Assembly (NCBI GenBank): GCA_903894755.1
Contig: CAITRH010000317.1
Location: 1-13,484, forward strand
DNA length: 13,484 bases
From: an uncultured delta proteobacterium
Lineage (GTDB): Bacteria; Myxococcota_A; Polyangia; Polyangiales; Polyangiaceae
Direction: 5' to 3'
A program made the position numbers and the translations under genes. Every line of letters begins with the position of its first letter. Within the stretch, counting starts at the first letter, position 1. The notes below the pieces were generated by a model. The model ran no database searches. It saw nothing but the letters and a program-made list of their open reading frames with translations, and was not told the DNA's origin. Positions 196 through 13,484 of this stretch are shown here, in pieces.

Positions 196-684
196 ATGGG
201 CCTGCACTTTATTGGGTTTACTCTGAACACTATGGAGAATCTTGGTGACCGCTTTATGCGAAGTAGACGCGAGCGGCAAAATGCAATTGGACGCATGAAG
301 CAGGAAGTCTACGATTTCCTTCAGCAGTCAGGGCGTAGGCGCGCCCAAGTACACTTGGAGCGTTGTCAGCGCGAAGGAGAGAACCGGCAAGCACGGCGTC
401 TCTTTACCAGTGAGCTCAGGGCGGGGACTCACGCACTTCTATGGCGCTTCAAGTTGTGCCGAAAGGAATTGGCGGTTGCTCGACAGAGGCCGGAATGCCG
501 CACAGTAAGTCAGGCATGGAGAAGAGTCGCTGCGTCTGTTGCGGAAACGCCCTGCGAAGTTCCTGCTATCCAAGAAACTGCCACGCCTGCGGTAAACATC
601 ACGGTACAAAGTTTTGCCATGCATGCGGCGGTGCTGGAGTTCATGGGGGAAACTCTGGTCCTGATAGGAGATACCGAGCAATGA
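196..684 (+). CDS. Hypothetical Arg-rich small protein (162 aa), translationally coupled to the downstream Get3/ArsA-like ATPase
   Basis: ORF in track. A strong Shine-Dalgarno AAGGAGGA (185-192) lies just upstream of ATG 196. Its TGA (682-684) overlaps the downstream ATG 681 as ATGA. No recognisable family motifs, and GC3 is modest (about 54%). Confidence 0.4.
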   Translation: MGLHFIGFTLNTMENLGDRFMRSRRERQNAIGRMKQEVYDFLQQSGRRRAQVHLERCQREGENRQARRLFTSELRAGTHALLWRFKLCRKELAVARQRPECRTVSQAWRRVAASVAETPCEVPAIQETATPAVNITVQSFAMHAAVLEFMGETLVLIGDTEQ

Positions 685-2600
685 TCGCTTCCAGACCCAG
701 CTTTCTGACCCGCCGTGACCTAAGGCTCCTTTTGGTTGGAGGAAAGGGAGGCGTGGGAAAGACAACTTGTGCAACATCCACCGCGATTTACCTTGCCCGG
801 CGTGGGCGATCGAGCAAGTTCTTACTGGTTTCAACCGACCCCGCCCACTCCGTGGCCGACAGTCTAGGAGCAACCACCCCTCCCGCCAATCTCGAGGTTC
901 TGGAGCTCGATGCGGCCCAACGTTTGGAGGACTTCAAACGGGAACACGGCGACAAGTTCAAGACAATCGCCGAGCGCGGGACCTTCTTGGATAAGGACGA
1001 TGTGGGCCAATTCCTGGACCGCTCTCTTCCAGGGATGGACGAATTGATGGCGTTTCTGGAGATCTCCAAACGCGTCGAAAGCAAAGCCTACCGATGTGTG
1101 GTGGTAGATACGGCTCCAACAGGTCACACACTGCGTCTTCTTGCGATGCCCGTTCTTTTGCGCAAGTGGCTTGGAGCGCTCGATGTTCTCTTGGCCAAGC
1201 ATCGGTATATGAAGAGCATCTTTTCCAGAAGCCCCCAACCCGATGAGATCGACACGTTTCTGACAGGCATGTTGGCCTCGGTGAAGAAGATGCAACGGCT
1301 TCTGCGCGATCCCAAGCGAGCGGTCTTTGTGCCGGTGATGCTCGCGGAGATGCTGAGCATTGACGAGACCAGCATGCTCCTTCGTGAGCTTGCACACAAG
1401 AAAGTGCCTGTATCCGATATCATTGTCAATCGCCTCTACCCTGCCAGCGACTGTCCGGTGTGCTCGGACATCCATGCGCGCCAGTTCCAAGAGCTCAAAC
1501 TATGTCTTCCTCAATTGAGCCAGTACGTCGTTTGGGCAGCTCCGCTCTATCCCGAGGAGGTGCAGGGGGTCACTTCGCTCAATACCTTCTGGAAAGATGT
1601 GGTGCGGGTCACAGCCGCAACTTCGGCTCCGTCTGGTGCGCTGGCCGACCTCCGTCCTCTTGTGGAATTCGCTCCCGAGCTCCCCTCTAAAGAAATCCAA
1701 CTTGTTCTTTTTGCAGGCAAAGGTGGGGTTGGAAAGACCACCCTCGCGTGCGCCACCGCTTTGCGCCTGGCCCAGGACCTATCGGAAAGGAGCGTTTTCC
1801 TCTTTTCAACCGATCCCGCCCACTCGCTATCGGCGTGCTGGGATAGGCATATAGGGTCACAGCCTACGTCCCTCACGCGCAGGCTTAGCGCGATGGAGAT
1901 TGACGCTCAAGCCGAGTTCAAAGAGCTGCGAAACGCATATGAAAAGGAACTAGCTCATTTCATCAAGTCGCTCTTGGGGAAAGTGGACCTCAAGTTCGAC
2001 CGAGAGGTGATGGAGAGAATTATGGATCTCTCCCCTCCCGGAATCGATGAAATTATGGCCCTCACCCTCGTCATGGACCTGCTCTCGGCAAAGAAATACG
2101 ATGTGTTTGTGTTGGACTGCGCTCCAACAGGGCATCTCATTCGCCTTCTGGAGCTTCCTCAGCTTATCGATGATTGGCTCAAGACCTTTTTTGGCCTCTT
2201 TGCAAAGTATGGACGCATCTTCAGACTTCCAAAGATCTTCCGTCGCATGACCCAAATATCCGCGCAGATCCAACAGTTGCGTAAGCTCTTCGCCGACCCG
2301 TCCCGCTCCACCATCTATGGCGTAAGCATCCTTACCGAGATGAGCTTTGAAGAAACCAAGGACCTCGTGGGCTCGGCAAAGCGACTCAACATTAGTTTGC
2401 CTGTGATCTTTCACAACCTTGCCACAGCCCCCTCCTCTTGCTCGTTGTGCAGTGCGCTCGTGCAACGAGAATCGAAACTTCGAAGTAAGTTTCTGGAGAC
2501 CTTCCCGTCCACTGCCCAGCCTCTCGTTTACCGAAGAGGCGAGCCGCGTGGACTGACCAACCTCGAAGCACTTGGTCAGGTGCTGTACCAAGAGCGGTGA
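681..2600 (+). CDS. Two-domain ArsA/Get3(TRC40)-family anion-transporting/targeting ATPase with a CXXC in each half
   Basis: Two P-loops (LLVGGKGGVGKTT and VLFAGKGGVGKTT), each followed by STDPAHS. Two DTAPTGH signature motifs (VVDTAPTGHTLRLL and VLDCAPTGHLIRLL). Get3-type CXXC after each half: CPVC at 1452-1463 and CSLC at 2439-2450. Start 681 is preferred because of SD AGGAGA (666-671) and the ATGA overlap with the upstream ORF. The track ORF begins at 441 with a Cys-rich extension. Confidence 0.85.
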   Translation: MIASRPSFLTRRDLRLLLVGGKGGVGKTTCATSTAIYLARRGRSSKFLLVSTDPAHSVADSLGATTPPANLEVLELDAAQRLEDFKREHGDKFKTIAERGTFLDKDDVGQFLDRSLPGMDELMAFLEISKRVESKAYRCVVVDTAPTGHTLRLLAMPVLLRKWLGALDVLLAKHRYMKSIFSRSPQPDEIDTFLTGMLASVKKMQRLLRDPKRAVFVPVMLAEMLSIDETSMLLRELAHKKVPVSDIIVNRLYPASDCPVCSDIHARQFQELKLCLPQLSQYVVWAAPLYPEEVQGVTSLNTFWKDVVRVTAATSAPSGALADLRPLVEFAPELPSKEIQLVLFAGKGGVGKTTLACATALRLAQDLSERSVFLFSTDPAHSLSACWDRHIGSQPTSLTRRLSAMEIDAQAEFKELRNAYEKELAHFIKSLLGKVDLKFDREVMERIMDLSPPGIDEIMALTLVMDLLSAKKYDVFVLDCAPTGHLIRLLELPQLIDDWLKTFFGLFAKYGRIFRLPKIFRRMTQISAQIQQLRKLFADPSRSTIYGVSILTEMSFEETKDLVGSAKRLNISLPVIFHNLATAPSSCSLCSALVQRESKLRSKFLETFPSTAQPLVYRRGEPRGLTNLEALGQVLYQER

Positions 2601-2685
2601 AGTTTTCTCCTACACTTCCCAACAAGGCACGCTACGCTACGGGTACATGGCCGCAGACCGCACCGACCGCACCAAGAGGGATCCC

Positions 2686-5196
2686 ATGGACGACCGCACG
2701 ATCAAACGCGACTTGGTTCTTGCCCCCAATGAATACGCCTATATGCAGGATGTCACCAAGGGCGTCATCAAAACGTACACCGGGCCCACCGTCATCAACC
2801 CCACCGCACAAGAACGCGCCGTTGTCTTCAACCAGGAGTCCAAGCGCTTCGACCCCTGTCCGCTCGAAGGGGCCGTGCAACTCTCGGCCATCGCTCCTGA
2901 AGGCTACTACATCATCCTCAAGAACCCCGCAGTCAAAGGGGACCGTCCCGCCACAGGCGGCGTGTATGCCACCCCAGACCTGGACATCGGCAAGAAGATC
3001 AACATCACCGGCCCTTGCATCTTTGCCCTCTGGCCGGGACAGATCTTCAAGCTCGTTCAAGGCCATCATCTGCGCTCGAACCAGTACTTGTTGGTCCGCG
3101 TCTACAATGAGGAAGAGGCGCGCAAAAACTGGGGCAAAGCCATCATCAAACCCGCATCGCCCGATACCTCCGCAGAAAGCTACGTCATCAACGCCCCCCC
3201 CTCGGACCTGAGCGTTGGCAAGCTCTTTATCATCAAAGGAACCGACGTCTCCTTCTATATCCCTCCCACCGGCGTTGGCGTTGTGCCCGACGAGCAGCGG
3301 TTGTATGTCCGTGACGCGCTCACCCTCGAACGCCTCGAATATTGCATCCTGGTCGAGCAGAACGGCAAAAAACGCTACGAACGCGGTCCACAGGTCGTGT
3401 TCCCCCAACCTACAGAGTCCTTCATCGTTCGCGACGCTCAACGTAAGTTCCGAGCGCTGGAGCTCAACGAAATCCAAGGACTCCACATCAAAGTGATCGC
3501 CCCCTACGAAGAGGCTGGACGCACCTTCAAAGAGGGAGACGAGATCTTTATCACTGGAAAAGAAACTGCAATCTACTTCCCCCGCGAGGAACACTCGTTG
3601 GTCCGCTACGATGGACGAGACAAACACTTCGCTGTCGCCGTACCAGCTGGGGAAGCGCGCTACGTCATGAACCGCAAGGCCGGCGACATCCGCATGATCC
3701 GCGGGCCTGCCATGTTGCTCCCCAACCCTGTGGAAGAAGTCATTGTCCGCCGTATCCTGTCGGACAAAGAATGCTCTACCTGGTACCCAGGCAACGACGA
3801 GGCCCTGGCCTACAATCGAAGCCTTCGTCAGCTCGCCGTGGTCACCCCCACCACCAGGTCTGGAGTGGTCTCCGAGGGGGACGTGGAGCGCAGTCGAAAG
3901 CGGGATGCCAAGGGCCATCATCAGGCGGGTCCAGTGACCATGGAGGCCAGTTTCGTCTCTCGTGACAGTACAGCCATGATGGGGGATGTCGTCGAGCGCG
4001 GTTCGAACTTCACCCAGCCGCGGACCCTTGTGTTCAACACCAAGTTTGAGGGCGTCCCCAACCTGTGCATCTGGGTCGGCTATGCAATGATGGTCGTGGA
4101 CAAGAAGGGGAGCCGAAGGGTCGAGCAGGGGCCCAAGAGCATTCTCCTCGAATACGATGAGGCTTTGGAAATCATCCACCTTTCCAAGGGACTTCCCAAG
4201 TCGTCGCAACAGCGCATACAAACCGTGTTTCTGCGTGTGCTCAACAACAAAGTGAGCGATATCTGTGAGGTCGAGACCGTCGACCACGTCCGCGTGAAGC
4301 TCACCTACTCGCTCCGCGTCAGCTTCGATGGAGACCCAAACCGTTGGTTCGAGGTCGAGAACTATGTGCAGTACCTGTGCGATCATATCCGCTCGGTGCT
4401 CAAGGGGACCACAAAGAGAACCACCATCGAGGCCTTCTACGCCAGCGCAGTCGACATCGTACGCGATACCATCCTAGGCAAGGCGCAAGACAAAGGGGAA
4501 CGTCCCGGTATGCGCTTCGCTGAGAACGGCATGCATGTGACCGATGTCGAGCTGCTTGATGTTGCCATTGGTGACGAGCGCATCGCAACGCTTCTCAACC
4601 AAGCGCAACACGAGGTGGTGCAGAGCAACATTGGGCTTCTTCGGGCAGGACGGAACCTAGAGGTCGTCAAGAAACAGGAGGACCTCCAACGGCAGGAGGC
4701 GGAGGCAAAGGCAATCACCACCAAGAGGAAAGCCGAGCTCGAGATGGACGACATTGGCGCGAAGCTTCAAGTGGAGCTCACGCGCATTGGAGCCGAGATC
4801 AAGCAACAGGAGCTCGCCGAGGGGGCCGCAAAGGCAAGGAACCTCGCGCTCGACGTGGATCACCAAGCAAAACTGTACCGAGCGCGTCTCACCGAAGGCC
4901 AACGTCAGGAAATGGAGACCAAGGATCAAACGTTGCGTCTCGAGGGGCTACGTGTCGAGGCGGAGACCATGGTGGAGCGGTTCGAGGCTGCGCAGGGGGG
5001 CTTCTCCGAGGCGTTATTGGCGCTCTCCAACCAGGAGACGTTGGTAAAGGTGGCCCAAGCCATGAGTGTACAGAGCTTCATTGGCGGCAAGACCCTAACC
5101 GACGTGATCGACAAGATCTTTGCCAATACGCCGCTGCAGGCAGTGGTCGAGACGGTCAAGGCCAAAGCAAGCCTTCCCGAGAAGCCTGCGAAGTAG
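2686..5196 (+). CDS. Major vault protein (MVP) homologue, full length (837 aa): N-terminal MVP repeats, shoulder, cap-helix coiled coil and cap-ring
   Basis: The N-terminus IKRDLVLAPNEYAYMQDVTKG..GP..ERVVF repeats the pattern of MVP repeat 1 (IIRIPPYHYIHVLDQN..GP..ERVLF), recurring at about a 50-55 aa period. The shoulder region (VETVDHVRVKLTYSLRVSF, VENYVQYLCDHIRSVLKGTTKRTTIEAFY) aligns with vertebrate MVP ([50 protein letters not shown]). A long Glu/Ala/Lys/Arg coiled coil and a terminal LTDVIDKIFAN follow, similar to MVP's ITDGSTPINLFNTA. GC3 is high. Start ATG 2686 has SD AAGAGGG (2674-2680); alternative in-frame starts are 2572 and 2647. Confidence 0.8.
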   Translation: MDDRTIKRDLVLAPNEYAYMQDVTKGVIKTYTGPTVINPTAQERAVVFNQESKRFDPCPLEGAVQLSAIAPEGYYIILKNPAVKGDRPATGGVYATPDLDIGKKINITGPCIFALWPGQIFKLVQGHHLRSNQYLLVRVYNEEEARKNWGKAIIKPASPDTSAESYVINAPPSDLSVGKLFIIKGTDVSFYIPPTGVGVVPDEQRLYVRDALTLERLEYCILVEQNGKKRYERGPQVVFPQPTESFIVRDAQRKFRALELNEIQGLHIKVIAPYEEAGRTFKEGDEIFITGKETAIYFPREEHSLVRYDGRDKHFAVAVPAGEARYVMNRKAGDIRMIRGPAMLLPNPVEEVIVRRILSDKECSTWYPGNDEALAYNRSLRQLAVVTPTTRSGVVSEGDVERSRKRDAKGHHQAGPVTMEASFVSRDSTAMMGDVVERGSNFTQPRTLVFNTKFEGVPNLCIWVGYAMMVVDKKGSRRVEQGPKSILLEYDEALEIIHLSKGLPKSSQQRIQTVFLRVLNNKVSDICEVETVDHVRVKLTYSLRVSFDGDPNRWFEVENYVQYLCDHIRSVLKGTTKRTTIEAFYASAVDIVRDTILGKAQDKGERPGMRFAENGMHVTDVELLDVAIGDERIATLLNQAQHEVVQSNIGLLRAGRNLEVVKKQEDLQRQEAEAKAITTKRKAELEMDDIGAKLQVELTRIGAEIKQQELAEGAAKARNLALDVDHQAKLYRARLTEGQRQEMETKDQTLRLEGLRVEAETMVERFEAAQGGFSEALLALSNQETLVKVAQAMSVQSFIGGKTLTDVIDKIFANTPLQAVVETVKAKASLPEKPAK

Positions 5197-9300: not shown

Positions 9301-9436
9301 GGCGATCGAGTCCTTGGAGCTTGGGGGGCGGATGGTGGGGGTGGTGACGCATTTGACTGCGCTTACGGAGCGTTTACCGGCGCGTCTATTGGTTACGAAG
9401 CATGCGGACGGCTCGCGGGTCACCAGGCAGCTTTGA
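6386..9436 (+). CDS. sbcC: SbcC (Rad50-family) SMC-like ATPase subunit
   Basis: Walker A GTTGAGKTSLLDAM. Q-loop LPQGEF. Long Ala/Arg/Glu coiled coil with a central CPVC zinc hook (7874-7885). Signature LSGGETFLASLALAL, Walker B/D-loop LFIDEGFASLD and H-loop VGVVTH. The preferred start ATG 6386 gives the N-terminus MRPLEIALSGF, typical of SbcC, with GGCGGAGGAG SD upstream. The track ORF starts at 6317 inside sbcD. Confidence 0.9.
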   Translation: MRPLEIALSGFTCFKQETVISLRDLDVFTIAGTTGAGKTSLLDAMLFALFGRVPRVGRSCADLISSGLDRMSVRLAFRMGDKEFTVSRILRRGRAAIAQLDDANGAVANGVREVDDAIERLVGMPFDTFVQAAVLPQGEFARFLKSTQSNRTKILRDLLRVEVYERMRLVAVASEQALAKTLTFTDNLLATDFAGATPEAMTALSQEFSRCIEGNEARAERSLEVRSKASELRTLFEKGVTLDKLQAERVALEAERSLAERAATECDAAERALRVEPLLRAVDEAAVAFALREQGRLARGAAVGQAEVILGKCQADFEQASHAAEALPGLRARCSALDAVIGVLAPLASERRSLEGLRKRQGKLVEELDLLSRELAVLDARCRSAEQASAVARARVTGCGYDPQSTERLEALRPAVERLGELRRELSGVQTEAARGEASVTSRTGAVAEARHGLEAALLAHQEAEKGAARAVSEVDAGTRVDHARALATSLVVGQSCPVCAQTVLAVPTVPEAVDKGALVERRHRAVAEERKAFELRLKKQAALGEAERRLAEAKETTAALGGHRVTLEAGLRAAEASLEELSRGLVSAATGTVEARVLAALTRAMAMRRAYDEAVAEQRRADDSLAQGRSAVDGRKHGVAALEAQRSTLDAQAAAVQQTVASWEQQLRAVTEHPDPRRERRELGERIEGLEAALHQARSSSEPAQAAASHARSLLELALKEALVAEANVIEARRAGEAAALAHGFLSLDQTRDAVRTPTDLQRLRTTVSSFERRAHALDGQMSGLALELGDRRVDAATLREVESELAELLALHDSERKREGGLAAELLAMARRVDRAAALRAEHAIQTRSRGILHQLADNLGTTKFQQYMLRETLSDLVARASTRLYRLSTERYTLELRDDDFFVVDHDNAEERRPATTLSGGETFLASLALALELSEQVQRAAGAIRLDSLFIDEGFASLDHEFLDAAAEAIESLELGGRMVGVVTHLTALTERLPARLLVTKHADGSRVTRQL

Positions 9437-9465
9437 CGCTGCAAAGGAAAAACAACTGGGTAGCG

Positions 9466-9490
9466 GGGATCGCGGTCGGCCCCCCCGGAA
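9466..9490. terminator. Weak candidate bidirectional terminator hairpin between convergent sbcC and the lipoprotein gene
   Basis: cggccc ... gggccg are 6-bp inverted complements around a C-rich loop in the 55-bp convergent gap. The loop is long and no T-tract is present, so this is weak. Confidence 0.2.
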
Positions 9491-9491
9491 C

Positions 9492-11426
9492 TTAGCGGGC
9501 CGTTAATGGAAGGGGCTCTTCGATCTTGATCTCGCGAATGGCTTCGCGGAAACGTACCTCGAGCTCGGTCAGCTTCATGTTGTTTTCCACCGATTGCTTC
9601 GTGAGCTCGTCGAGACGCGCCACGATCTCAGTGAGACGCGCAGTCAAACGGCGCCGGAGCGCATCGGCGTCGCGGTTCTTCTCAATGGCCTTGAGGTTGC
9701 GACGGGTCTCTTCAGAGGCGGTGCTGAGATCGTGCTTCTCCCGCTCCAACTTGAGACGCACTTCCCGCTTCTGAACAATCTCGTTGCGCAACGCCCAGGC
9801 CGCCGTCAGCTTGGCCACCGTAGCCGTGGGCGCGCGAGGATCGGCGAGGTACGCTTTGACCGCGTTGTTGGCAATTGGAGAAAACCAGTCTTCCCAACGT
9901 CGCACTGTCGCGCGCTCGTCGACAATGAGCTCGCCCGTCGTGTTCGGCGCCACCACCGTAGGGACCAGTGCGGTGCCTGTCCCCACGTTGTCTTCTGTCT
10001 CCTTGGGCGCTTCGAAAAGACGGGTGTCGCTCTGACGCGGATGTTTCACCAGCAGCTTGATGGGACGCTCTGTGCCGTTTCGAAGGCGATAGGTGGTCCT
10101 CAAGACTGCGTCGCGTTCGATCCAAAGCTGGCCGTTCTCGATCTTTGCCACCCGCTCGCCGGTTTCATCCGACTTTTGCTGATGGTCGACAGCGATGGCG
10201 CGCTCGAGTGCAAAGGGGACCGTCGCCGTTGCGCCCGCAGGGAGCGGGTCGACCATGCCTTGTCCTAGGAAAGACCCGTCCTCGAACACCGCAATGGGAC
10301 CGCGTTCGAGCATGCCTGCAGTGGCGTTGCGAAACCGTGCAACGCGGAACGGGTGGCTGCGGGAGTCGGGCACTCCACCGTCCGGCGCATAGAGGAAATT
10401 GGCCTCGCCAGGGACTTTCCGAGAAAGCATCATCACCATGGTGGCGCTCTGGTCCGGGATCGTCAGCGGCACTGGAAGATCGTAGCGGGTCGTTCCCCCT
10501 TCGACGGCCACGGCAGCAAGGGCGCGCACATCGCGAGGACCGGACGGGACAATGCGTGCGGACGGCGCGGGAGGCGGAGGAGGAGGAGGAGGAGCAGAAG
10601 GAAACATCATCCGAGGGGCAGGCACGCGAGCGGCTCTTCCCATGCCACCTCGTGTCCTGCCGCTAGGGGCTTCGGCGGCGGACTTTGGGCTGTCTTCTTC
10701 GTCGCTGTCGCGTGCCACCGCGGCGGGACTTGGCGCGGGCTCGGCAGGCGGTTCTTGACGAAGCGAGGTTTCGGAACGCGGGACCACGGCCAAGACCTCC
10801 CCCAAGTCGGTGATCACGGGACGTACTGGGACTACAGGCACGCCCAGTTGCGCCTCGAAGGCCAGCGGGGCACCAGCTACGAGCGACAACCGAACATTTT
10901 TCCAGTCCTCTCCAGAGAGATTTTGGACAATGCCCCAGGCCTGGAGGTCGGCTTCCCCCGTGCGATGCACGACCAGTCGATACGAGGGGCGCCAGACAGG
11001 GCATTCGGCGACGTAGCCGACCTGTAGGTCATGTTTCTTGCCGTCTAGAGACAGCACTATGGTCTGTAGATCGCTCTTAGGTTTGGACTCCTTGTCTTTG
11101 TCTTTGTCGTCGTCGTCAGGTTTCCTAGGACGCGGGGCTTCTTCAGGCTTGAGGGGGAATGCGGCGGAGCGCACCGAGCTTCCGCCCTGTTCCATGACGG
11201 CGAGGGTGGCAAGGAAATCGCCGACTTGTTTGCCACGCATGCGAAAGTGGACTTCGTCGGCTTCGACCTGTCCGCCGCGTTCGAAGTAGGCGATACCGTT
11301 TCGATAGATGACTACTCTTTTGAGAGGAAGATTGCTTTCGACGATGGGGCCTCGACCGCAACCCATCAAAAAGAGTCCACCGAGCAGCAGCGCTGCCCCA
11401 TTATGCTTCGTTGACCACGTACGCAT
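9492..11426 (-). CDS. Putative secreted lipoprotein, possibly DUF4140/DUF4139 (TIGR02231-like) family, with a C-terminal coiled coil and low-complexity inserts
   Basis: 644-aa ORF with an N-terminal signal peptide and lipobox-like LFLMGC. Segments resembling the DUF4140 N-terminus (RVVIYRNGIAYFERGGQV) and the DUF4139 core (TGEADLQAWGIVQNLSGEDWKNVRLSL; RGPIAVFEDGSFLGQGMV) are recalled from memory only. Acidic DDDDKDKDKE and poly-Pro PPPPPPPPAP tracts are present. The C-terminal 100 aa are predicted coiled coil. Confidence 0.55.
   Translation of the reverse strand: MRTWSTKHNGAALLLGGLFLMGCGRGPIVESNLPLKRVVIYRNGIAYFERGGQVEADEVHFRMRGKQVGDFLATLAVMEQGGSSVRSAAFPLKPEEAPRPRKPDDDDKDKDKESKPKSDLQTIVLSLDGKKHDLQVGYVAECPVWRPSYRLVVHRTGEADLQAWGIVQNLSGEDWKNVRLSLVAGAPLAFEAQLGVPVVPVRPVITDLGEVLAVVPRSETSLRQEPPAEPAPSPAAVARDSDEEDSPKSAAEAPSGRTRGGMGRAARVPAPRMMFPSAPPPPPPPPAPSARIVPSGPRDVRALAAVAVEGGTTRYDLPVPLTIPDQSATMVMMLSRKVPGEANFLYAPDGGVPDSRSHPFRVARFRNATAGMLERGPIAVFEDGSFLGQGMVDPLPAGATATVPFALERAIAVDHQQKSDETGERVAKIENGQLWIERDAVLRTTYRLRNGTERPIKLLVKHPRQSDTRLFEAPKETEDNVGTGTALVPTVVAPNTTGELIVDERATVRRWEDWFSPIANNAVKAYLADPRAPTATVAKLTAAWALRNEIVQKREVRLKLEREKHDLSTASEETRRNLKAIEKNRDADALRRRLTARLTEIVARLDELTKQSVENNMKLTELEVRFREAIREIKIEEPLPLTAR
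10570..10602. repeat. (GGA)n / (GGN)n trinucleotide microsatellite inside the lipoprotein CDS; encodes poly-Pro on the minus strand
   Basis: ggaggcggaggaggaggaggaggagcagaagga read directly. Confidence 0.8.
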
Positions 11427-11467
11427 CGAGCACCTCCGGATGCGGCGAGCATACGACCTCGCCCTGA

Positions 11468-11575
11468 GCAGCGTCGAGTACCGAACGGTGGAAACGCCCT
11501 TGTTGCGCGGTTCGGACCCGGCTCGGACCTGCGGTTTTCAAGTTTGGTTTGGTTTAGCGTGCGCATGTGGCCGGG
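11468..11575. repeat. Copy A of an imperfect direct duplication of the MCE gene promoter and 5' end, upstream of the tandem array
   Basis: gcagcgtcgag-taccgaacggtggaaacgcccttgttgcgcgg ... tagcgtgcgcatgtggccggg is about 80% identical to 11752-11826 (gcggcgttgagagtaccgaccggcggaaactcccttgtcgcgtcc ... tagcgtgcggatgtggcggcc). Copy A carries an extra 35-bp internal segment. Confidence 0.5.
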
Positions 11576-11594
11576 AGACGCGACGGGCGGACAG

Positions 11595-11722
11595 ACCCGC
11601 AGCACTTCCGAACGCACCCGCAGCACTTCCGGACGCACCCGCAGCACTTCCGGACGCACCCGCAGCACTTCCGGACGCACCCGCAGCACTTGCCGGACAG
11701 ACCCGCAGCACTTCTCGGGTGC
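11595..11722. repeat. 21-bp tandem repeat array (about 6 units, consensus ACCCGCAGCACTTCCGGACGC) in a divergent intergenic region
   Basis: Units at 11595, 11616, 11637, 11658 (four near-perfect), 11679 (22 bp, 1-nt insertion) and 11701 (degenerate). Each unit contains the palindromic TCCGGA. The array is bracketed by CGGACAG variants. Confidence 0.85.
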
Positions 11723-11751
11723 TCCCCCGGTGCGCTTCGCCATCATCTGGC

Positions 11752-11826
11752 GCGGCGTTGAGAGTACCGACCGGCGGAAACTCCCTTGTCGCGTCCGATC
11801 GCTGCTAGCGTGCGGATGTGGCGGCC
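11752..11826. repeat. Copy B of the imperfect direct duplication; includes the GTG start of the MCE gene
   Basis: See copy A. Spans the putative promoter region and the first codons of the 11818 ORF. Confidence 0.5.
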
Positions 11827-13290
11827 AAGGTCACCCATGCGGCAAAAGTAGGGCTCTTCGTGGTCCTTTCCGGAAGTGCGCTCTACGGCATCTACCGCAC
11901 GGTGAGCCGTGAGGTCGGCACCTCGTCCAGCTACACGGTCCACGGCTACGTTAAAGACGCGACCGGGCTCGCCAGCCACTCGAGGGTCACCATCGCCGGT
12001 ATCCCCGTCGGCTCCATCGACGGGATCCGTCTCGAACGCGGCCTGGCACGCATCGATGTGCGCATGCGGTCCGATACTCCCCTCTACACCAACGCGACCA
12101 TCGGCAAGCGGGCCGCGTCGCTCCTCGGAGAGAACGTCATTGTCCTGACCCCGGGCACCCCCGACACGGCCGCACTCAAGGACGGCGACGAGATCCACAC
12201 GGTCGTCGAAGAGACCTCCATGAGCCAAATCATGGAGGAGGTGAAGGAAATCGCTGACCGGGTCAAAGATGTCGCCACCCAGCTTGCCAAGTCTGTCGGC
12301 ACGGAAACCGGCGGCCAGAACATCCGGCTCATCTTGCAGAACCTGGCCGAAGCCACCGACGCCCTCAACAAGACGATCAACGAAAATAGGATCTACATCA
12401 ACACGGCGCTCAAGAACGTTGCCAGCATCACCACCCATGCGGACCCGCAGATCGCGCGAATCCTCGACAACGTGCGCGTGGTCACGGAAGACGTACGCGG
12501 GCTCACGGCCTCGGCGGGGGGCGGACGGCAATCCGGGGAGCTACGCGAAACCGTCGAGCGTATCAACCGTGCCACCAAGAGCTTGGAAAGTGCGTTAGGT
12601 CACGTCGACCGCGTTGTCGCGCGGGTGGACCGAGGCGAGGGGACCCTGGGACGACTTTCTAAGGATGACGCCTTGATCAACGAGGTCCAGGGGGCGGCCG
12701 AGGGGGTCGGCGAATTCGTCGGCGGGATTCAGCGGCTCCAGACGGTGGTGGGCCTACGCAGCGACTACAATTTCCTGGCCAACACGATCAAGAGCTACGT
12801 CGAGGTGCGTCTACAGCCACGGGAGGACAAGTATTACCTTATCGAGCTAATCAACGATCCAAGGGGTAAGACGAGTTTCTCTCAGGTTGACGTCGACACG
12901 ACCAATCCGCGCGATCCGGCGCACTACCGGACCATCATGACGACGACCACTGACGCGTTCCGCTTTTCGCTGCAGTTTGCGCGGCGCTTGGGGCCGTTTA
13001 CGGGACGGTTTGGGATCAAGGAGTCGACCGGGGGCATCGGGCTCGACATCCATCTGTTTGGCAATCGTCTCGAGGTGGTGCAGGACATCTTTGGGTTTGC
13101 CGAGGAGGTCCAGCCGCGTTACCGGATTTACTTTGGCTATGAGTTTATCAAGAGGTTGTGGCTTCTCGGAGGAGTGGACCACCTGTTTCTTGGAAACCGT
13201 CGGGACTACTTCCTGGGGCTCCAACTCCGGTTTAACGATGAAGATTTGAAGACTATCCTCCCCTTTGTGCCGACCGGAGCGGCGAAGTAG
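11818..13290 (+). CDS. MCE/MlaD-family protein (single N-terminal TM helix, MCE domain, long helical C-terminal region)
   Basis: GTG start. TM segment VGLFVVLSGSALYGIY, then the MCE-domain pattern YTVHGYVKDATGLASHSRVTIAGIPVGSIDGIRL..ARIDVRM..PLYTNATIGKRAASLLGENVIVLTPG, then about 300 aa of mainly helical sequence. Stop TAG 13288-13290. Confidence 0.8.
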   Translation: MAAKVTHAAKVGLFVVLSGSALYGIYRTVSREVGTSSSYTVHGYVKDATGLASHSRVTIAGIPVGSIDGIRLERGLARIDVRMRSDTPLYTNATIGKRAASLLGENVIVLTPGTPDTAALKDGDEIHTVVEETSMSQIMEEVKEIADRVKDVATQLAKSVGTETGGQNIRLILQNLAEATDALNKTINENRIYINTALKNVASITTHADPQIARILDNVRVVTEDVRGLTASAGGGRQSGELRETVERINRATKSLESALGHVDRVVARVDRGEGTLGRLSKDDALINEVQGAAEGVGEFVGGIQRLQTVVGLRSDYNFLANTIKSYVEVRLQPREDKYYLIELINDPRGKTSFSQVDVDTTNPRDPAHYRTIMTTTTDAFRFSLQFARRLGPFTGRFGIKESTGGIGLDIHLFGNRLEVVQDIFGFAEEVQPRYRIYFGYEFIKRLWLLGGVDHLFLGNRRDYFLGLQLRFNDEDLKTILPFVPTGAAK

Positions 13291-13358: not shown

Positions 13359-13484
13359 GCCCCCCTCTCCCTCGACATCTTCCTTGCCCATTCGGGCAAG
13401 GAAAATCGTCTTCGAGCGAGGGGGGAGGAGAGCCGCGGTTCCGAGCCCCCCTCTCCCTCGACATCTTCCTTGCCCATTCGGGCA
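13359..13484. repeat. Two copies (the second truncated by the window end) of an 86-bp-period repeat containing nested imperfect palindromes
   Basis: The 40-bp segment gcccccctctccctcgacatcttccttgcccattcgggca occurs at 13359-13398 and 13445-13484. The inner hairpin is ccttgccc-attc-gggcaagg (13382-13401). The outer arms ccctctccctcga / tcgagcgaggggggaggagag are imperfectly complementary. Confidence 0.7.

Follow-up and report, generated by a model that had tools for sequence, protein, structure and literature searches.

The contig CAITRH010000317.1, a whole JGI metagenome contig (13,484 bases, from a Polyangiaceae-like myxobacterium) that is here called the window, contains a tandem array of 21-bp units at positions 11588-11714. 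The array is located in the 391-bp intergenic region (11427-11817) between a lipoprotein gene on the minus strand and mlaD, an MCE-family gene on the plus strand. With a probability of about 0.55, we regard it as a young, lineage-specific, non-coding minisatellite, or variable-number tandem repeat (VNTR), lying at a rearrangement junction. It is probably neutral, and at most an element that tunes spacing; in this reading we infer which sequences are promoters, that slippage is the mechanism and that the array is neutral.

The 21-bp array and its length variation

Tandem Repeats Finder (TRF) reported 6.0 copies with 92% matches and 1% indels (score 210), with no strand assigned. An earlier note on this DNA, made from the letters alone, had described about six such units between divergent lipoprotein and MCE genes. 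Both the array and its divergent neighbours were confirmed, although the limits given there (11595-11722) have to be moved 7-8 nt to the left. The consensus 21-mer CGGACGCACCCGCAGCACTTC produced six consecutive matches at ≤2 mismatches and none elsewhere in the window, with 0 expected: none of 200 dinucleotide-preserving shuffles contained any match. The units start at 11588, 11609, 11630, 11651, 11672 and 11694. Position 11693 is a 1-nt insertion, and the units abut without spacers. Head-to-tail repetition of a unit of this kind (≥~10 bp) is far beyond chance, as in known VNTRs and minisatellites. The GC content is 69.3% in the array, 66.8% in the intergenic region and 60.5% in the window.

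The outer units 1 and 6 have the same sequence, CGGACAGACCCGCAGCACTTC, with CAGA where the inner units 2-5 have CGCA. Two of the inner units are identical; unit 2 differs by G3A and unit 5 by C21G, followed by the 1-nt insertion. The inner units are thus homogenised and the edge units divergent, as in minisatellites. Positions 11612-11691 form a perfectly periodic tract of 80 nt with an exact period of 21 (no strand assigned), and this is the part of the array that would gain or lose a unit. A 13-nt core, ACCCGCAGCACTT, is constant in all six units, and the variation between units is confined to the 8-nt linker. The linker holds TCCGGA, a motif that the earlier note had placed in each unit and taken as its core; it is intact at three unit junctions only (11628, 11649 and 11670) and, being located in the variable part of the unit, is not a functional core.

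Since the inner units are near-identical and the outer ones keep an older variant, we propose that the array expanded within the 80-nt tract, through slippage during replication or through unequal exchange, with whole 21-bp units being gained or lost (5 or 6). Each step would correspond to seven codons and two helical turns, keeping the frame and the rotational setting of the flanks. Changes in unit number should therefore be cheap and probably near neutral, which may be why they are tolerated. At most, the unit number could tune the distance from the lipoprotein-side sequences, or from a ghost promoter described below, to the real mlaD promoter ~90 bp downstream.

A comparison of unit number across assemblies, which the earlier note had proposed, gave five units in a contig of the independent ENA assembly ERZ18656948 (L011), and six in the window and, by gene coordinates, in a third assembly. 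L011 corresponds to window positions 9343-13212, with 0 substitutions in 3,849 bp and one 21-bp gap, located inside the array, so that it has 5 units, a periodic tract of 59 nt and an intergenic region of 370 bp. The third assembly, ERZ1426777 (an ENA/NCBI contig), has a 391-bp gap between the two genes, which is the six-unit spacing. In the metagenome-assembled genome (MAG) GCA_037141095.1, ~1% diverged in coding regions, mlaD and the lipoprotein gene are on separate contigs. The mlaD contig of this MAG (L012) has exactly 55 nt of the perfectly periodic sequence at its start, and the start of a Logan contig, L013, is likewise within the array. A k = 55 de Bruijn graph breaks at a 55-mer when a k-mer recurs, and the tract in the source of the MAG should therefore be at least 76 nt long, which would mean six or more units, or else a population that is mixed. 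The MAG contig with the lipoprotein gene (L014) ends at the equivalent of window position 11563, 25 nt before the array and inside D3-A, a repeat described below; no k-mer repeat that would explain this break point is visible in the window sequence.

From these assembled sequences, a real copy-number polymorphism is likely. The earlier note had also suggested a VNTR-type switch of phase or tuning. The unit number in the assemblies agrees with a VNTR (5 versus 6, with no single-nucleotide polymorphisms (SNPs) in 3,849 bp), but the term phase switch is too strong, because a 21-bp unit leaves both frame and helical face unchanged and lies outside the promoter spacer. The SNP-free intergenic region was considered as evidence of constraint and discarded, since the absence of SNPs extends far beyond that region (10576-11999).

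A further explanation is that short-read mis-assembly produced the array or its unit count; for the existence of the array, this is hardly credible. The assemblies do differ in unit number (5 or 6), and some contigs are broken within the array, as such an artefact would predict, but the array, identical flanks and the same unit variants are common to at least four independent assemblies (JGI, ENA, NCBI MAG and Logan), and the 80-nt tract is shorter than a typical read. On these two grounds the existence of the array is secure, and the uncertainty is limited to the exact count per sample.

The repeat is not a dispersed one. Two cores at 21-bp spacing were found in one contig among 241 million metagenome records, in an unrelated Gly/Ala/Ser-rich coding stretch. 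There was no array match in viral contigs, nor in 72,556 plasmids and 50,697 phages searched by blastn. At ≤2 mismatches, the 13-nt core had 2 extra matches in ~18 kb of DNA from the same species, both intragenic, against 0.5 expected. A dispersed repeat resembling repetitive extragenic palindromic sequences (REP) or miniature inverted-repeat transposable elements (MITE) was rejected accordingly, as no other copy appeared in the window or in metagenome, viral, plasmid or phage sequence. The earlier note had called for a search for other copies of the 21-mer and had named a dispersed repeat of invariant copy number as the outcome that would speak against it; the repeat proved to be local, and 5 or 6 copies were seen in the assemblies.

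Several points weigh against a neutral minisatellite. The difference of 5 versus 6 units comes from short-read metagenome assemblies, perhaps of the same or related samples, and collapse at k ≤ 59 would yield exactly the five-unit form (the tract is 80 nt in the window and 59 nt in L011). The core has none of the ~4 differences between units, all of which occur in the 8-nt linker (P of ~0.02-0.06 if they were random), and this hints at constraint on the 13-nt core, as for a binding site. The array is also located at about -100 to -230 from the mlaD start, the usual zone of upstream activators, and the search for further copies of the core covered only ~18 kb of this genome.

The position of the array and its invariant core, set against a varying linker, are what an operator or upstream activating sequence array would show. 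This is the main rival explanation, and we consider it possible but unlikely. The core of each unit would bind a regulator (a response regulator or an enhancer-binding protein), the 21-bp period would place the sites on one DNA face, and the unit number would set how strongly mlaD, the lipoprotein gene or both are activated or repressed. The recurrence of GCAC at intervals of 9 and 12 nt in alternation, roughly one for each turn of the helix, is consistent with this explanation, as is the presence of an extracytoplasmic function (ECF) sigma factor gene and a sigma54-activator gene after mlaD in one relative. However, a motif at orthologous promoters or elsewhere in the genome was not found in the relatives examined (L001-L009 and L016), all of which lack the array upstream of mlaD, nor in the 18 kb of same-species DNA, where the two intragenic matches do not represent single-copy sites beyond chance. 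There is no regulator gene in the window, and no sigma54-type -24/-12 promoter was seen: the repeated segment D2, described below, reads by eye GG-N10-GT and not GG-N10-GC, and has no convincing ECF -10 element, so that a sigma54 or ECF promoter in D2 was rejected. Moreover, a homogeneous interior with an older variant at both edges is the pattern of slippage alone, and the contrast between core and linker derives from only 3-4 mutational events.

A duplicated mlaD promoter and start segment

The array is flanked by two direct repeats, D2 and D3, that were absent from the earlier note. D2, detected by repeat search and gapped alignment, is 32 nt long and 88% identical between its upstream copy D2-A (11476-11507, plus strand, GAGTACCGAACGGTGGAAACGCCCTTGTTGCG) and its promoter-proximal copy D2-B (11762-11793, plus strand). 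D3 is 17 nt long, with 16/17 identical positions (94%) between D3-A (11555-11571, plus strand) and D3-B (11806-11822). The sequence of D3 is TAGCGT-gcgSat-GTGGC, and the downstream copy is mlaD's own box and start; the array is therefore located between a ghost copy (A) and the working copy (B) of the mlaD promoter and start, within 190 bp. At the proposed junction, a ~60-95-bp piece of the mlaD promoter and start (D2 plus D3) would be present twice. Among 80.8 kb of related DNA, D2 and D3 are confined to the locus of this species.

In copy B, the predicted mlaD promoter core and start are at 11803-11822 (plus strand), where a TGn extension (TGcTAGCGT) is followed after 6 nt by the GTG at 11818. 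D2-B covers the -35 region, from about -56 to -25 relative to the mlaD start, and the TAGCGT box lies 91 bp downstream of the end of the array. In four diverged orthologous loci (L001, L007, L009 and L016; MlaD 74-76% identical), the mlaD start is preceded at 11-12 nt by a box that reads TAGCGT or TAGTGT, without a Shine-Dalgarno sequence. On the plus strand of the window, 3 of the 4 copies of TAGCGT are in intergenic DNA upstream of plus-strand genes, although the intergenic fraction is small. Because of this conservation and bias, TAGCGT would be a -10-type element, and the mlaD mRNA would have no leader or hardly any, and no Shine-Dalgarno sequence.

Copy A consists of the ghost -10-like box and start TAGCGT-gcgcat-GTGGC (D3-A), which lacks the TGn extension, and of D2-A, placed 35 nt farther from the box than in copy B by an insert found only in copy A (11508-11554, plus strand; TRF and gapped alignment of the two copies). 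The insert contains an 11-bp tandem duplication (CGGCTCGGACC twice, 11508-11529) and a GTTTGG repeat, and the duplication appears to be further evidence of local slippage in the intergenic region. The sequence GTTTGGTTTGGTTT is located directly after the duplication. The possibility that the DNA between the duplicated flanks is a decayed copy of the 5' coding region of mlaD was rejected, as the local alignment was no better than in 137/500 shuffles.

A 64-aa open reading frame (ORF) exists across the array (11567-11761, plus strand) because the ghost copy brought a GTG; its peptide has the form MAGRRDGRTDPQHF(RTHPQHF)n. The earlier note had read the RTHPQHF heptads in the MCE frame, but they are in the frame of GTG 11567, and the mlaD frame reads DAPAALP and ends at a TAG at 11806. 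Its remark that the heptad ORF lacks support was correct: the ORF has no Pfam match and no homologues, and was never called as a gene. None of ten candidate ORFs across the array, in any frame and from any start, was found among 15 billion predicted proteins, an absence to be read with the fact that JGI, NCBI and ENA all hold the contig. An exhaustive phmmer search of 1.84 billion representatives with the 64-aa ORF returned only unrelated low-complexity proteins with xPQxxxx heptads. This ORF is probably not a gene; its GC content of 100% at third codon positions was rejected as an argument, since only 7 of these positions are independent (~P = 0.25).

The same ORF enters a further explanation, which we judge improbable, in which the ghost promoter is active and a leaderless transcript starts at GTG 11567. 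The product would be a His/Pro/Gln-rich heptad peptide of variable length (64 aa at 6 units) and/or a 5' leader of ~250 nt for mlaD. Copy A has kept TAGCGT at exactly the same distance, 6 nt, from the GTG, the array is in frame with this GTG, each unit being 7 codons, and the GC content by codon position in this frame is 71/43/100%, like that of real genes, although the third-position signal has the limit just given. On the other hand, copy A has lost the TGn extension and the proximity of D2, the ORF has neither homologues nor a call by any pipeline, the 1-nt insertion at 11693 alters the heptad register in the last unit, and the peptide has no hydrophobic or recognisable features. A stretch of 11 nt at the array unit junctions, GCACTTCCGGA, is the exact reverse complement of TCCGGAAGTGC (11869-11879, mlaD codons 18-21) and is paired with it in the predicted fold of a 334-nt transcript from copy A; this pairing was noticed post hoc, and the fold is not significant against shuffles (z = -1.7).

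A newborn gene for a His/Pro/Gln-rich heptad-repeat micro-protein or a translated leader is likewise improbable, as is a dial of operator sites that preserves helical phase and through which a regulator sets the expression of MlaD (envelope lipid transport). For such a gene, a minisatellite with in-frame units of 7 codons would have come under the duplicated leaderless promoter and start of mlaD, and slippage would alter the length of the product. A structured RNA, a riboswitch and a CRISPR array (clustered regularly interspaced short palindromic repeats) were also considered and rejected: no Rfam family reached the gathering score, no fold was significant against shuffles (z = +1.8 for plus-strand DNA and -0.6 for minus-strand RNA, in addition to the transcript above), and the units have no unique spacers between them.

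Relatives of the locus and the M23 peptidase gene

In the related loci, an M23-peptidase gene precedes mlaD on the same strand, either directly (L001-L008 and L016) or two genes away (L009). No M23 remnant was detected in the window by tblastn. An intact M23 orthologue of the same species is present on another contig (P0255 = MEI7895349.1); it belongs to GCA_037141095.1, the MAG that also contains the near-identical MlaD and lipoprotein. In the nearest relatives, MlaD is 76% identical and the lipoprotein 62-64% (non-self), or 49% in the nearest representative genome, and the relatives of the lipoprotein have unrelated neighbour genes. No sister locus was found in the collections searched, where the nearest relatives have different neighbours. 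As synteny is broken on both sides with respect to these relatives, the intergenic region is, by sequence comparison, a lineage-specific junction. This lineage would have separated mlaD from the M23 gene and set it back-to-back with the DUF4139 lipoprotein gene, giving rise to the 391-bp region.

Only three arrays scoring >100 were found in 75.5 kb of related DNA, in a survey biased towards mlaD loci: the array of the window and those of L003/L004 and L016, all of period 21 and each upstream of mlaD on the same strand. In L003 (435-537) the unit is (AGPDEVR)x5, and the same gene has x4 in L004, a length polymorphism; in L016 (4071-4244) it is (ADAPQAA)x8.3. These arrays are in frame, in the N-terminal tail of the M23 peptidase, shortly after a GTG without a Shine-Dalgarno sequence.

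The array of the window could accordingly be the relic of a coding repeat, left over when an M23-peptidase gene lost all but its 5' end, an origin that we consider very improbable. In its favour, the two nearest lineages carry 21-bp in-frame arrays in the 5' end of the M23 gene at the same place relative to mlaD, with polymorphic unit number (5 versus 4), the gapped similarity between the units of the window and of L016 has P = 0.011, and in scoring, the start region of copy A is closer to the starts of M23 genes than to those of mlaD. Nevertheless, D3-A is 16/17 identical to the mlaD start and has an mlaD-type box, whereas the M23 boxes are TAAGGA, TAAACG and TAAGCA, so that the ghost start would derive from mlaD and not from M23. 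The ungapped unit similarity is not significant, and such arrays are present in only 2/120 M23 orthologues. The M23 gene of this species (L017) starts with a TAAGCA-N9-GTG arrangement of its own, and its short tail is free of repeats. The M23 arrays belong to a long, conserved and annotated gene, in contrast to the 64-aa ORF without homologues and with a start copied from mlaD, and the unit sequences are not demonstrably related. With an mlaD-type ghost start, no remnant and an intact M23 gene elsewhere, descent from the M23 gene was mostly rejected, and the period of 21 shared by the three arrays is an unexplained coincidence.

The contigs that carry the M23 gene of this species end 12-85 nt past its stop codon in three assemblies (L017, ERZ1426777 and ERZ1426779), which suggests a repeat just downstream of the gene that assembly did not resolve. 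The 17 nt past the M23 gene in L017 (4415-4431) share only GGAAACT with D2.

Known repeat systems and the rest of the window

The array resembles the bacterial intergenic VNTRs used in multiple-locus VNTR analysis, which are also non-coding, with head-to-tail units >10 bp, a uniform interior, breaks or collapses in short-read assemblies, and whole-unit length differences in otherwise identical sequences, which are likely for the array. It differs from them in being known from one uncultured Polyangiaceae-like lineage, with 5 versus 6 units seen in assemblies only, and in lying between two copies of a duplicated promoter and start.

Plasmid iterons, such as the 22-bp repeats of R6K and the 17-bp repeats of RK2, are likewise several direct repeats of ~20 bp, spaced close to two helical turns. 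The analogy with iterons in the earlier note did not hold, as the array has neither a Rep initiator gene nor an AT-rich unwinding element nor DnaA boxes beside it, the context is of chromosomal type with 69% GC in the array, and no plasmid matched. The simple sequence repeat contingency loci of Neisseria, Haemophilus and Campylobacter also combine slippage-prone repeats near a promoter with heritable and reversible length variants; their units, however, are of 1-9 nt and shift the frame or the -35/-10 spacing, and the 21-bp array does neither.

The closest well-studied parallel is found in the promoter tandem repeats of M. tuberculosis (dop, lpdA and cysG), which are hypervariable, are collapsed by short-read assembly and have been proposed to tune expression; their units, of 54-58 bp, are themselves promoter copies, so that extra units add promoters (PMC12817950). 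Both kinds of repeat are directly upstream of genes with leaderless-type starts. The array shares their position, its end being close upstream of the TAGCGT box, and probably their variable copy number, with 5 versus 6 units in short-read assemblies. In contrast to the M. tuberculosis repeats, its 21-bp unit contains no -10-like hexamer (no TAnnnT on either strand, and none in the promoter scan), and the promoter and start are duplicated once only, as the diverged flanks D2 and D3, with the array filling the space between them.

If the array is a minisatellite of this kind, it would be one more bacterial VNTR, of modest significance. It could be used as a strain marker for this uncultured Polyangiaceae-like lineage, and would illustrate how rearrangement junctions collect local duplications that expand by slippage. 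It would also serve as a warning that short-read metagenome assemblies mis-state such arrays or break at them. The import would be larger if the unit number changed the expression of mlaD, involved in outer-membrane lipid transport, or of the lipoprotein gene, as studies of tandem-repeat variation close to promoters have until now dealt almost exclusively with pathogens such as M. tuberculosis (PMC12817950).

Regarding the flanking genes, mlaD (11818-13290, plus strand) starts with GTG and encodes a 490-aa protein with a Pfam MlaD match (9.8e-14) and 2,976 homologues, whose N-terminus was aligned to its orthologues. The lipoprotein gene (9492-11426, minus strand) encodes 644 aa with a lipobox and a DUF4139 domain (Pfam), and is preceded by a Shine-Dalgarno sequence (GGAGGTG). 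A weak sigma70-like candidate promoter was read by eye within ~60 bp of its start (-35 TCGACG at 11477-11472 and -10 TATGCT at 11453-11448, minus strand); with 8/12 matches it was below threshold, and the promoter scan found none.

The lipoprotein gene contains a (GGA)11 trinucleotide tract (10570-10602) that encodes a poly-proline run. The contig L014 of the MAG, 99% identical, has 3 extra nt (645 versus 644 aa). The tract, located ~1 kb away from the array, is thus another repeat that is polymorphic and prone to slippage. Two C-terminal fragments of the lipoprotein from two other assemblies (P0125 and P0127) begin just past the tract, on contigs that point away from the array.

Past the end of mlaD, a sequence of 40 nt, GCCCCCCTCTCCCTCGACATCTTCCTTGCCCATTCGGGCA, is repeated perfectly and in direct orientation at 13359-13398 and 13445-13484, 86 nt apart. 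Each copy contains a hairpin with arms ATCTTCCTTGCCC and GGGCAAGGAAAAT (13 nt, 92% complementary), and the repeat is REP- or MITE-like in look. The contig ends in the second copy, 194 bp past mlaD, and the repeat probably broke the assembly there.

Pfam matches of the six long ORFs of the window were to an ArsA-like ATPase, a Major Vault Protein (MVP)-like protein, SbcD, SbcC, DUF4139 and MlaD. The MVP-like gene (2572-5196, plus strand) encodes an 874-aa protein with a Major Vault Protein shoulder domain (E = 7.5e-25) and Vault_3 repeat domains (7.3e-9). It overlaps the end of a gene for a double ArsA/ParA-type ATPase (441-2600, plus strand), with which it forms a bacterial MVP-like gene pair.

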